In this document: one piece after another, positions 37,580-45,900 of the stretch
Layout of the letters: each line of letters opens with the position of its first letter
Numbering within the stretch: the stretch's first letter is position 1
Assembly (NCBI GenBank): GCA_963675785.1
Contig: OY776562.1
Coordinates: 74,516 to 138,515 of the forward strand
Length of the DNA: 64,000 nt
Origin: Anaerolineae bacterium
GTDB lineage: Bacteria > Chloroflexota > Anaerolineae > UBA1429
Direction: 5' to 3'
The notes under the pieces: generated by a model
Database searches by the model: none
Told to the model about the DNA's origin: nothing
Seen by the model: the letters and a program-made list of their open reading frames with translations, nothing else
Translations under genes and position numbers: made by a program

Positions 37580-37647
37580 TTGTCCATTGCGCAGAGGGGG
37601 CGCTCTGCTAGAATGTATATAAATAGCATCGAATGACGGAGAGAGCC

Positions 37648-39711
37648 ATGACGGAGAATATAAAAGATCGCATCAAGAGATTGCGGGAGCTGATCAATTA
37701 TCACAGCTATCGTTATCACACTCTAGATGCTCCCGAAATAACCGATGCCGAGTACGATGTTCTTGTGCAAGAGCTGGAACGACTTGAGCGCGAGAATCCT
37801 TTGCTGATTACGCCCGATTCGCCCACTCAGCGTGTGGGCAATGAACCGCTGCCAGAATTTGCCAAGGTCGAACACCCTTACCCCATGACCAGCCTGACTG
37901 ATGCTTTTAGTCGTGAAGAGGTGGACGCTTGGCTAGAGCGAGTCTGTCGGCTGCTTCCTGATGACACGACGCTGCAGTTTGTGGCAGAGCCCAAGATAGA
38001 TGGGCTGGCCGTAGCTCTCACTTATGAGAATGGCTTGCTGGTACGCGGTGCTACTCGTGGTGATGGGCAGATTGGCGAGGATATTACGGCCAATGTACGC
38101 ACTATTCGAAATGTGCCTTTGCGCATCCCTGTTCAAGATGATATGGCGGTGCCGCCACGTATTGAGGTGCGTGGCGAGATATATATGCCCCGCGATTTGT
38201 TTGACCGTATGAATGAGGAGCGGGAAGTACGGGGTGAAGCGTCGTTCGCTAACCCACGTAACGCGGCAGCTGGCTCAGTGCGCCAATTGGATCCCCGTAT
38301 CACCGCTGGACGACCACTGAGGCTGTTTGTCTATGCCATTGGCTTTGTTGAGGGCGTAAAAGTAGAGAGTCAGTGGGATGCTTTGGCCTATATGCGGCAG
38401 CTAGGCTTTGCCGTGAACCCTGACATCCGTTTGTGTGAGTCCTATTCGGATGTGGTGCACTATGCCGAAGAGTGGATGAACAAGCGCGACGAGCTCAACT
38501 ATGAGGCCGACGGCGTGGTCATCAAGATCAATTCACTGGCGCTGCAGGGGCAATTGGGGGCCGTGGGCAATGCGCCGCGTTGGGCTATAGCTTACAAATT
38601 TCCCTCGCGAGAAGCAATCACGCGCCTGCAAGAAATCAGAGTGAACGTGGGCCGTACCGGGGCGCTGACGCCCTATGCTGTGTTGGACCCGGTACAACTG
38701 AGTGGCGTAACCATCCGCCAGGCTTCGCTGCACAACTTTGAGGATTTAGCCCGCAAAGATATTCGCCAGGGTGATATGGTCGTCATCAAGCGCGCGGGAG
38801 ACGTCATTCCGCAGGTTATAGGGCCGGTAGAAGGCTTGAGGACTGGTGTCGAAGTACCGTTTGAGGTTCCTGCAGCTTGCCCTGTGTGCGGAGAGCCTGT
38901 CGTCTCGGATGAAGAACGTGTAGTGGTTTATTGTGATAACCCCACTTGTCCTGCGCAAGTAGTAAGGCGTATTGAACACTGGGCCTCTCGTGGTGCCATG
39001 GATATCGACGGCATGGGCGAAAAGGTGGCCGCGCTGCTCTATGAAAAAGGTCTAGTCAAGAGTGTCGCAGACCTCTATGATCTGACTTTTGCTCAGCTAG
39101 AGGGTTTGGAGGGGTTTGGTCCGAAACGTGCTGAAAACCTGATACAAGCCATTGCTGCGAGCAAAGATAGGCCGCTTTGGCGCTTGCTCACAGGTCTTGG
39201 TATTTTGGGTGCAGGTGAACAGGTTTCTCGGCTTTTGGCCGATCACTTTCGCAGCATCGATGCGTTGGCCGGGGCAGATGAGCAAGAGATTGAGGCAATT
39301 GCGGGATTGGGTCCTCATGTTTCTCATGCTTTGACGACTTTTTTTGCCCATGAGCGCAATCAGGAACTCATCGAACGCCTCAGGTCAGCGAGTGTCAATA
39401 TGGTTGATGAAACCCCCGTGGTGGTCACAGAGACAATCAGTTTAGAAGGATTGACCTTTGTGATCACGGGTACATTGGATGGCCTTAGTCGAGATCAGGC
39501 TAAAGAGCTTATCGAGGCACATGGTGGTCATGTCTCGAGTAGTGTATCTGCCAAGACGGATTATCTGTTGGCCGGAGAAAATGCCGGTAGCAAGCTGGAT
39601 AAAGCGCGTTCTCTGGGCGTCAAGTTGATCGGCAAAGAAGATCTGTTGGCTATGATCGAGAATGCCGAAATCGGTGCTTCTGGTGAGATCTCGACAGGGC
39701 GCCTGCTATGA
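37648..39711 (+). CDS. ligA: NAD-dependent DNA ligase
   Basis: Adenylation motif KIDGLA; NAD-binding Ia domain ([11 protein letters not shown]), OB, Zn finger ([27 protein letters not shown]), HhH and a C-terminal BRCT. Start at the ATG with a GGAGAGAG RBS; the alternative ATG is at 37633. Confidence 0.9.
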
Positions 39712-44065: not shown

Positions 44066-45900
44066 GCTTTCGGAGTGATGTACGACACGCCTCGAACTCT
44101 TCACATGTAATAAGGCGTTTGTGGCACTATTTCTCGCCTTTTTGGAAGAGATTGGTCGCCCTGTTTTTGCTTTTGATCGTCAGCACTGTGGCTGAAGTTG
44201 CTTCGCCGTATCTCATCGGTGTGGCCTTGGATGGTTTTATCGACCCTGGGTTGGTTGATCTGCCCGGCTGGTTGCTATGGTTGGCAGGTGGAGATCCTAC
44301 TCGGATCGAGGGCCTAGCTATTACGGCAGCCTGTCTTGGCGGCGTATACGCCATAAGCTGGCTGATGAGTGTGGTTCAATTCAGGCTGATGGTACGCATG
44401 TCTCAGCGAGTACTGTTAGATTTGCGAGCAGACATTTTCGACAAAGTACAGCGGCTTTCCCTCTCTTTCTTTGATACCCATGAAGCCGGCGACCTGATGA
44501 GCCGGCTGATCAATGATACACGCGTAATCAATGATGTGTTTGGGCCAGGCATTATGCGCATGCTGCGTATGGCTATGGGCATGACGGGCATTTTGGCCAC
44601 CATGTTCACGCTCAGCTGGCAGCTTTCGCTGGCTTCATTCGCACTGGTTCCTTTTGTGCTGGTACTTACGGTGGTGCTTTCACGCCGAGTGCGTACTGCC
44701 TATCGTGTAACCCGCAAGACCGTGGGTGATGTGAGCGCTGAGCTTCAAGAGAACATCTCTGGCGTGCGTGAGGTGCAGGCTTTTGCCCGTGAGAATGAGA
44801 CTTTTGAAGAGTTTCGTGCGGTCAATGCCCGTAACCGCGAAGCGAATGTGCGTGCTGAAACCATCATGGCCGGATTCGGTCCTGCGCTCAGTGTGCTGAG
44901 CACCGTGGCCCAGGCCATGGTGGCCGGTATCGGTGGCTATCTTGTACTAGGTTTTGACCCACCCATAGTTTCCATCGGTTTGATCGTCTCGTTTGTTACC
45001 TATGTGGATCGCTTTTATTCGCCCATCCGCGAGATCGCTCAATTGTGGGGTCAGTTCCAATCGGCCATTGCCGGTGCAGAACGCATTTTTGAGCTGCTCG
45101 ATGAGCCAGAGACCGTGAAGGATGCGCCGGATGCTGTTGAGCTAGGATCAATTCAGGGGCAAATCGCTTATGACGGCATTTGCTTCTCTTATGTCCCCGA
45201 AGAGCCTGTGCTGCAGGATGTCTCGCTCAAGATCGAACCGGGGCAAACAGTGGCTTTTGTGGGGCCCACTGGTGCTGGCAAGACCACTATGGTCAACCTG
45301 CTCATGCGTTTTTATGATGTGTGCGGCGGGGCGGTTCGAGTGGATGGTCATGATGTGCGTAAAGTAACGCTGGCCAGCTTGCGTTCGCAGATCGGCATTG
45401 TGCTGCAGGATACTTTTCTCTTTTCCGGCACGGTGATGGATAATTTGCGTTACGGCCGACTGGATGCCACTGATGACGAAGTGGTGGAAGCGGCGCGAGT
45501 GGCCAACGCCCACGCCTTTATCGAGCGCTTGCCCGAAGGTTATCAGACCTTGATCGGCGAGCGCGGCTCCAATTTGAGCCAGGGCAATCGGCAATTGCTC
45601 TCCATCGCTCGCGCGGTACTCAATAATCCGCGAATTTTGGTGCTAGACGAGGCCACCAGCTCGGTGGATACGCGCACAGAGCTACTCATCCAAGACGCGC
45701 TCTCGCGCTTGCTGGATGGCCGTACCAGTCTGGTTATCGCCCATCGCCTCAGCACCATTCGCAGTGCAGATCTCATTGCCGTGATCAAAGGGGGACGCAT
45801 TATCGAATCGGGCAAGCATCAGGAATTGTTGGCCCAGGACGGTGTTTACCACGAGTTGTACATGAGCCAGTTTCGCCGTGAGACTGACGAACCTGCCTAG
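44062..45900 (+). CDS. ABC exporter subunit (TMD-NBD half-transporter) with a degenerate signature motif (LSQGNRQ)
   Basis: Walker A GPTGAGKTT, Walker B LVLDEATS (catalytic Glu present), and a degenerate C-loop LSQGNRQLLSIARA. It overlaps its partner by 4 nt. Confidence 0.85.
   Translation: MSFRSDVRHASNSSHVIRRLWHYFSPFWKRLVALFLLLIVSTVAEVASPYLIGVALDGFIDPGLVDLPGWLLWLAGGDPTRIEGLAITAACLGGVYAISWLMSVVQFRLMVRMSQRVLLDLRADIFDKVQRLSLSFFDTHEAGDLMSRLINDTRVINDVFGPGIMRMLRMAMGMTGILATMFTLSWQLSLASFALVPFVLVLTVVLSRRVRTAYRVTRKTVGDVSAELQENISGVREVQAFARENETFEEFRAVNARNREANVRAETIMAGFGPALSVLSTVAQAMVAGIGGYLVLGFDPPIVSIGLIVSFVTYVDRFYSPIREIAQLWGQFQSAIAGAERIFELLDEPETVKDAPDAVELGSIQGQIAYDGICFSYVPEEPVLQDVSLKIEPGQTVAFVGPTGAGKTTMVNLLMRFYDVCGGAVRVDGHDVRKVTLASLRSQIGIVLQDTFLFSGTVMDNLRYGRLDATDDEVVEAARVANAHAFIERLPEGYQTLIGERGSNLSQGNRQLLSIARAVLNNPRILVLDEATSSVDTRTELLIQDALSRLLDGRTSLVIAHRLSTIRSADLIAVIKGGRIIESGKHQELLAQDGVYHELYMSQFRRETDEPA

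Follow-up and report, generated by a model that had tools for sequence, protein, structure and literature searches.

A stretch of 64,000 nucleotides from the genome assembly of an Anaerolineae bacterium (GCA_963675785.1, contig OY776562.1, positions 74,516 to 138,515 of the forward strand; the whole stretch is hereafter called the window) carries four genes packed head to tail on the + strand. They encode the NAD-dependent DNA ligase LigA, a DNA helicase of the MrfA/YprA family that contains a putative nuclease domain, and the two halves of a heterodimeric ATP-binding cassette (ABC) exporter, and the question that this locus raises is whether the four products work together. The first-pass annotation of the window, made from the letters alone, had proposed a single operon that both excises and exports bulky genotoxin adducts. 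Calling of open reading frames (ORFs) reproduced the layout on which this proposal was built, namely ligA at 37633-39711, the helicase gene at 39719-42307, ABC1 at 42308-44065 and ABC2 at 44062-45900, with intergenic distances of 7, 0 and -4 nucleotides (nt) for ligA/helicase, helicase/ABC1 and ABC1/ABC2, respectively, and all of the encoded proteins belong to known families. The statement that such an arrangement had not been described also held, as we found no description of it in the literature searched. The reading that we favor, with a probability of about 0.6, is that the string consists of a conserved pair, ligA and an HNH-bearing helicase gene, lying beside an independent, lineage-specific exporter. 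The comparisons that led to it drew on 173 gathered loci on which ORFs were called; L-numbers in the text are the labels of these loci.

An HNH domain inserted into an MrfA-family helicase

The helicase gene (39719-42307, + strand) encodes a superfamily 2 (SF2) DNA helicase of 862 amino acids (aa) that matched Bacillus subtilis MrfA (YprA) with 712.8 bits (phmmer against PDB 6ZNP, the structure reported by Roske et al., PMC7797055). The match fell into two blocks, residues 17-643 aligning with chain residues 8-633 and residues 745-847 with chain residues 646-747, and the two proteins share the domain order NTR, RecA1, RecA2, WH, OB, CON, MZB as well as a four-cysteine zinc site. Pfam identified DEAD, Helicase_C, WHD_HRQ1, HNH and MZB domains, and motif II reads DEMH. 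The window protein differs from MrfA in an HNH endonuclease insertion of about 101 aa (aa 644-744, encoded at 41648-41950 on the + strand; Pfam HNH 36.4 bits, cutoff 21.4). This insertion stands in for 12 residues (634-645) of the B. subtilis protein at the CON/MZB junction, at the very start of MZB (domain limits in B. subtilis MrfA: CON 557-630, MZB 631-749; PMC7797055), and its site lies beside the wide funnel where DNA enters MrfA. It is followed by the MZB (DUF1998) zinc-binding domain (aa 745-847; 41951-42259, + strand; Pfam MZB 70 bits).

In an alignment of 24 homologs that were 49-56% identical to the window helicase, nine residues of the insert (C683, C686, H699, H700, N721, N725, C730, C733 and H734, which comprise the predicted catalytic residues and two CxxC pairs of zinc ligands) were invariant, as were the MZB cysteines C819, C821, C825 and C828. 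An AlphaFold (AF2) model of the C-terminal 210 residues had a predicted local distance difference test score (pLDDT) of 83, with values of 83-97 across the HNH part. When the two halves of this model were compared with known structures by Foldseek, the HNH half retrieved Cap5, Cas5-HNH and Cas9 HNH domains with probabilities of 0.92-0.99, yet at E > 0.1, and the MZB half retrieved 6ZNP at E = 1.7e-7. Judged by its motif residues, the insert appears to be catalytically intact and is a predicted nuclease, which agrees with the first-pass description of an 862-aa MrfA/YprA-family helicase carrying its own putative nuclease. The protein would be a translocase that moves 3' to 5' on single-stranded DNA and has acquired an endonuclease of its own on the side where DNA enters; we infer that it cuts as well as unwinds DNA, and that LigA, encoded upstream, would seal the product.

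The combination of DEAD, Helicase_C, HNH and MZB domains recurred in nearly every one of the 120 top-scoring homologs, the named sources of which were Chloroflexota/Anaerolineae, and HNH-specific peptide patterns confirmed at least 533 stretches of the HNH form in metagenomes. Among the matches listed for GTDB species genomes, loci with the HNH domain (HNH+) were all from Chloroflexota, while loci without it (HNH-) belonged to Firmicutes, Acidobacteriota and further phyla. Neither the HNH form of MrfA nor its linkage to a ligase is mentioned in the searchable MrfA/YprA literature, and MrfA helicases with an HNH domain that is inserted and intact, which make up a large branch in Chloroflexota and hold a fixed place behind ligA in one clade, have apparently gone undescribed.

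YprA-family helicases with fused nucleases are also central to several anti-phage defence systems, and DISARM DrmA, Druantia DruE and ARMADA (Bell et al., PMC12458937) are of the same helicase family as the window protein and resemble it in having a nuclease fused to the helicase. The HNH domain could accordingly be read as the effector of a defence helicase related to these systems, and the PADLOC models BrxH, DruE and DrmA did match the helicase core. These matches, however, covered the SF2 core only and reached at most 141 bits, compared with 713 bits to MrfA over all seven domains, and because of this difference the helicase is assigned to the repair branch of the YprA family and not to the DISARM/Druantia type. 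Whereas the YprA defence helicases bear C-terminal PD-(D/E)xK/Vsr or PLD nucleases and are encoded in multi-gene operons, the window protein has an internal HNH domain and a housekeeping context. Its gene lies next to ligA in what appears to be a conserved chromosomal setting with no island signature in its base composition, no methylase, DrmB/C, DruH, Dpd or other partner gene was found among its neighbours, and the helicase tree largely tracks Chloroflexota lineages, as expected of vertical inheritance. On the basis of the PADLOC scores and the gene context, the defence reading was rejected, and we attach only a very small probability to it.

Linkage of ligA and the helicase gene among relatives

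The ligase gene (37633-39711, + strand; 692 aa as called) was identified by scores well above the cutoffs of two protein family models (NF005932, 860.7 bits versus 369; TIGR00575, 831 bits versus 444), and its product has all of the LigA domains (Nlig-Ia, adenylation, OB, Zn finger, HhH and BRCT by Pfam) and KIDG in the translation, so that its first-pass identification as the NAD-dependent ligase was borne out. The second ATG, at 37648 (687 aa), is the more likely start; it has GGAGAG upstream and is the start called in L173, a relative of the window at more than 90% identity. In L166 (980-2916) ligA is split into ORFs of 143 and 502 aa, but L167, a near-identical contig, has the gene in one piece (672 aa), and the split is probably an assembly or sequencing frameshift, not a pseudogene.

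The first genome and metagenome scans for MrfA provided, among the matches listed, 126 sampled loci (83 HNH+ and 43 HNH-). A same-strand ligA was located directly upstream of the helicase gene in 10 of the 64 HNH+ loci with enough upstream sequence, compared with none of the 37 HNH- loci for which this could be read. Over all gathered loci, the order SH3-domain gene, ligA, HNH-helicase was found in 13 distinct lineages (window/L173, L166/L167, L168/L169, L081/L082, L083, L084/L085, L086, L090, L091/L094, L092, L100, L156 and L158), with an orthologue of the SH3 gene directly 5' of ligA in all 13, whereas it occurred at none of about 90 further MrfA loci. Twelve of these lineages formed one helicase clade with a neighbour-joining bootstrap value of 92%, and L156 fell outside it; L115 was the only member of the clade with upstream sequence that had no ligA there. 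The gap between ligA and the helicase gene was mostly -1 to 71 nt; L094 and L167 had wider spacings, of 171 and 228 nt, respectively, and a terminator was not seen in this interval. As a first unit of the string, ligA and the HNH-bearing MrfA gene are therefore conserved as neighbours within one Anaerolineae-type Chloroflexota clade, in which they are probably co-transcribed.

Conservation of this kind could also reflect nothing more than inherited gene order, that is, a slowly rearranging stretch of generally compact DNA in which no adjacency, that of ligA and the helicase gene included, has a basis in shared function. Such a view would accommodate the SH3 gene, for which no DNA-related role is obvious and which, though set apart from ligA by a terminator, is conserved beside it in all of the same lineages, as well as the wider gaps in L094 and L167 and the missing ligA in L115. 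It would also accommodate the HNH-MrfA genes outside the clade, the neighbours of which were not conserved, in agreement with a branch described as 'YprA only, no conserved genomic context' (PMC12458937). What it explains less readily is that ligA and the helicase gene have stayed adjacent and co-directional in 13 lineages while the genes downstream vary (MrfB, histidine kinase, response regulator, VOC, ABC), that most of the gaps between them are 71 nt or less with no terminator seen, and that the ligase, the helicase-nuclease and the exonuclease of the relatives would make up a coherent repair set. The last point has a parallel in a gene cluster of Pseudomonas putida and numerous further bacteria, Exo-Lig-Lhr-Core-MPE (Ghosh et al., PMC7826289), which likewise groups a 3'-5' SF2 helicase, one or more nucleases and a DNA ligase and has been read as one repair pathway. 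That cluster has an ATP-dependent ligase, Lhr-Core and the MPE metallophosphoesterase, whereas the window has the NAD-dependent LigA, a YprA-family helicase and an HNH domain; the window helicase scored only 135 bits against the Lhr-Core model TIGR04121 (cutoff 850), and no metallophosphoesterase gene accompanied it. Taken together, these observations make inherited order without any functional basis a possible but rather unlikely explanation.

The resemblance to mrfAB of B. subtilis, the operon behind RecA-independent and mitomycin-C-specific resistance, extends, in relatives of the window, to the gene that follows the helicase. A gene for an MrfB-like 3'-5' exonuclease (RNase_H_2 + TPR) occupied the first position downstream in 30 of the 43 HNH- loci, as against 9 of the 83 HNH+ loci, and stood at the first or second position in eight related lineages (L081, L083, L086, L087, L088, L092, L100 and L158; in L087 and L088 the upstream side is not on the contig, and the position of ligA could not be read). 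The window itself differs from mrfAB not only in the 101-aa HNH domain at CON/MZB and the ligA directly upstream but also in this respect, since no MrfB was detected in the 64 kb at E <= 1e-3 (tblastn, 46 MrfB-like queries). That the HNH domain stands in for MrfB, as the first-pass reading implied, is thus in keeping with the rarity of MrfB beside HNH+ helicases but is contradicted by the eight lineages that keep both, and replacement of MrfB by HNH was rejected. Because the two co-exist in these lineages, the HNH domain more probably contributes an additional cut than takes the place of the exonuclease. Other genes located downstream of the helicase were a histidine kinase or response regulator gene (L081, L083 and L084), a small unannotated ORF (L090) or an ORF of 391 aa (L091/L094).

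No bacterial excision repair route other than MrfAB is known to act specifically on a natural antibiotic, and, as regards specificity in mitomycin repair, cross-complementation fails between distant MrfAB pairs (Burby & Simmons, bioRxiv 10.1101/426304). Published models of MrfAB assign neither the first DNA cut nor further partners, and the HNH-bearing MrfA branch behind ligA offers a testable lead on both the incision step and the partners of MrfAB-type repair.

The exporter and its place behind the helicase gene

Both exporter halves, ABC1 (42308-44065, + strand; 585 aa) and ABC2 (44062-45900, + strand; 612 aa), contain ABC_membrane and ABC_tran domains (Pfam), and their best half-transporter matches in the PDB were TM_0287 (443 bits) and TM_0288 (504 bits), respectively. 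ABC1 has degenerate motifs, with Asp in place of the catalytic Glu in Walker B (LILDDA) and Gln in place of the switch His (VIAQR), while ABC2 has those of a consensus ATPase (Walker B LVLDEA, H-loop IAHR) but the signature LSQGN instead of LSGGQ. On these motifs, the pair classifies as a heterodimer of the TM287/288 type in which one ATP site is degenerate. The first-pass assignment to the TmrAB/BmrCD type agrees with the motifs and the chain-wise matches, the closest solved structure being TM287/288 of Thermotoga maritima, with which the window pair shares overlapping half genes, chain-wise matches and the same asymmetry of ATP sites; TmrAB, BmrCD and EfrCD are further heterodimeric type IV ABC exporters with a single degenerate ATP site. 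Neither half reached an NCBIfam equivalog cutoff (best score, CphA_assoc_ABC with 500 bits versus 880). To our knowledge, TM287/288 has no known substrate, and we know of no report of a TM287/288-type exporter behind a repair helicase.

None of the 126 sampled loci had a full ABC exporter within four genes of the helicase, and the exporter adjacency first appeared to be unique to the window. This view was dropped when a search from ABC2 showed helicase homologs on the contigs of two of the best matches: the full order of SH3 gene, ligA, HNH-helicase and two ABC genes is present in L166/L167 and in L168/L169. Among the gathered loci, a helicase gene followed by an ABC pair was found only in these two lineages and window/L173, so that the adjacency of the string as first annotated is conserved in its ligA-helicase part (13 lineages) and, in its helicase-ABC part, confined to the sub-clade of the window. 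Between the window and L166/L168, LigA was 66-67% identical, the ABC halves 65-70% and the helicase 52-53%. Equally close exporters occur away from any helicase gene: L170, L171 and L172 have orthologous ABC pairs (64-72% identity to the window halves), upstream of which lie genes of the opposite strand, and no helicase gene is near. The L170 pair is nearer to those of L166/L168 (73-78% identity) than the window pair is, has a threonyl-tRNA synthetase gene upstream in place of the helicase, and is followed by the same block of genes as in L168. Because L170 keeps this block but has no helicase gene, the exporter appears to be syntenic with its downstream block and not with the helicase. In L168, L170 and L171 the block behind the exporter includes AP_endonuc_2 genes, and the L170 copy was 37% identical to the TIM-barrel protein encoded next to ABC2 in the window.

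A genotoxin-resistance module, in which ligase, helicase-nuclease and exporter excise bulky adducts and pump out the drug or the excised adduct, would be in keeping with the tight junctions of the window and with the retention of the adjacency in a second, fairly distant lineage (L166-L169). In L168 and L169, moreover, a gene for a 123-aa protein of the VOC glyoxalase/bleomycin-resistance fold (L168 8464-8835) lies between helicase and ABC1, together with a 168-nt spacer. In Mrd/Mct mitomycin self-resistance, drug-binding VOC proteins act with exporters (bioRxiv 10.1101/2025.11.28.691146), and MrfAB of B. subtilis is itself specific for a natural genotoxin (bioRxiv 10.1101/426304). The VOC protein, however, did not specifically resemble Mrd or bleomycin-binding proteins (the best PDB match was Rv0577, the others being weak generic VOC matches); in L166 only the C-terminal third of the gene persists, as a frameshifted remnant within the 461-nt helicase-ABC1 spacer (5686-6146), and in the window the gene is absent. 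A role for the L168 protein as an Mrd-like drug binder was therefore rejected on the missing match and the pseudogene. Against a common module we can also place the promoter-like site TTGAC[T/G]-17-TACACT that L166 and L168 have in common 70-100 nt 5' of ABC1, and the lack of a Cheo-type LexA box near the string, the single match in the window being remote (at 12172) and at chance level. The adjacency was missing at the 126 other sampled MrfA loci and at three of the five loci with the closest ABC orthologues, L170 included, and few genes are as common in these genomes as those for exporters of the TM287/288 type, with 7867 homologs at E <= 1e-100. We therefore consider a genotoxin-resistance module improbable.

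The trees of SH3 and LigA bear on how often the junction arose. The window grouped with L166/L168 in the SH3 tree (96%), in the LigA tree (84%) and in the tree of both proteins combined (99%), and for this reason the helicase-ABC junction most simply would have arisen once, in the ancestor of the sub-clade. In the helicase tree alone, the window branched outside all other members of the clade (95%), a placement that we take as a long-branch effect; an origin of the junction in two separate events, or in the ancestor of the whole clade, as the helicase tree would have it, was rejected because the SH3 and LigA trees join the window with L166/L168. The conflict itself, with the window as outgroup by its helicase and as sister to L166/L168 by the neighbours SH3 and LigA, is an observation in its own right, and it suggests faster helicase evolution in the window lineage, which would also have lost the adjacent MrfB gene.

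Under the favored reading of a conserved pair beside an independent exporter, a TM287/288-type exporter would have come to lie behind ligA and the helicase gene in the common ancestor of the window and L166/L168, after which the window lineage lost the spacer, so that TAA is now directly followed by ATG. Because of this collapse of the spacer, the window exporter is probably transcribed and translated by read-through from the upstream unit and would not be a dedicated functional partner. A combined repair-and-export machine is unlikely, because the exporter adjoins the helicase gene in one small sub-group only, and since the link is local to one small lineage it is not usable as evidence for a repair-plus-efflux system.

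Several observations weigh against this reading. The junctions of the window have the look of a real operon, with intervals of 0 and -4 nt and ribosome-binding sites inside the preceding genes: the helicase TAA (42305-42307) abuts the ATG of ABC1 at 42308, which is preceded by AAGGA, and ABC1 and ABC2 share ATGA at 44062-44065. Further upstream, ligA stops at 39711 and the helicase gene starts with the ATG at 39719, 5 nt after a GAGG Shine-Dalgarno sequence. The helicase-ABC adjacency has also outlived the divergence of the window from L166/L168, at the identities given above for LigA, ABC halves and helicase, which is longer than is usual for random neighbours. If the helicase tree with its 95% value reflected what actually happened, two origins or several losses of the ABC junction would be required. 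Finally, the adjacency of ligA and the helicase gene is no proof of shared function, considering that the unrelated SH3 gene is equally conserved there. A stronger form of coupling can also be envisaged, in which an almost self-sufficient pathway of nicking, unwinding, degradation and sealing is encoded by ligA, the HNH-bearing MrfA gene and, in most members, mrfB, with the HNH domain supplying the incision, the replicative ligase recruited directly and the exporter of the sub-clade adding efflux to the same transcriptional response; we regard this as unlikely.

Boundaries and neighbours of the string

From sequence alone, co-transcription of the four genes can be suggested but not demonstrated. 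An intrinsic terminator on the + strand (37544-37576; hairpin with a 15-pair stem and 3-nt loop, followed by a T-run) ends the SH3 gene, sets the upstream edge of the ligA unit and is the sole strong terminator in 36800-47200. Terminator-like matches inside the string were weak and no more frequent than in shuffled sequence (7 observed versus 9.8 expected), and promoter-like matches there were likewise at the level of chance. Of the regulatory features first annotated around the string, the terminator before ligA and the lack of a strong one inside the string stand. The promoter before ligA does not, since the leader (37577-37632) contains no sigma-70 match of 9/12 or better and only an AT-rich -10-like stretch (TAGAAT / TATATAAAT), nor does a terminator after 45900, as none was seen 3' of this position. 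The string is bounded there by a convergent gene for a xylose-isomerase-like TIM-barrel protein of the AP_endonuc_2 family (45897-46712, - strand; 271 aa; Pfam PF01261, E = 6e-35), which overlaps the ABC2 stop by 4 nt and is part of the block syntenic with the ABC pair. Between the upstream terminator and TAGAAT lies a 6-bp inverted repeat, GCAGAG-N6-CTCTGC (37591-37608), which was not found in the relatives and may be due to chance.

The SH3 gene (37000-37530, + strand) encodes a 176-aa SH3_3-domain protein (Pfam SH3_3, E = 8e-13) and is a separate transcription unit from ligA. It is preceded by a perfect sigma-70 promoter, TTGACA-18-TATAAT, at 36928-36957, and promoters matching at 12 of 12 positions, with spacers of 17-18 nt, were also found 5' of the SH3 gene in L166 (190-218) and L168 (2984-3012). 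The SH3 proteins of the window and these two relatives are only 59% identical, and the retention of a perfect promoter in all three despite this divergence suggests very strong, conserved expression. In relatives, the interval between the SH3 gene and ligA contains the hairpin CCGGGACAGAGC-loop-GCTCTGTCCCGG followed by a T-rich stretch (L081, at about 5750-5790, L083, L084, L167 and L168); the window hairpin occupies the same position but differs from it in sequence.

Downstream of the string, a pyridine nucleotide-disulphide oxidoreductase gene follows at 47156-48532, and between it and the TIM-barrel gene an ORF for a 52-aa DUF1059-like protein was called in L173 (17203-17361; window 46713-47155). 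The sole Rfam match at the gathering threshold in the 64-kb window was a transfer RNA gene at 49002-49084 (- strand). On the other side, a gene for an ECF-type sigma factor of 188 aa (Sigma70_r2/r4_2 in the identical locus L173) lies within 35884-36797 on the - strand, divergent from the SH3 gene, and downstream of it on the same strand, with a 1-nt overlap, is an ORF of 115 aa that could encode an anti-sigma factor.

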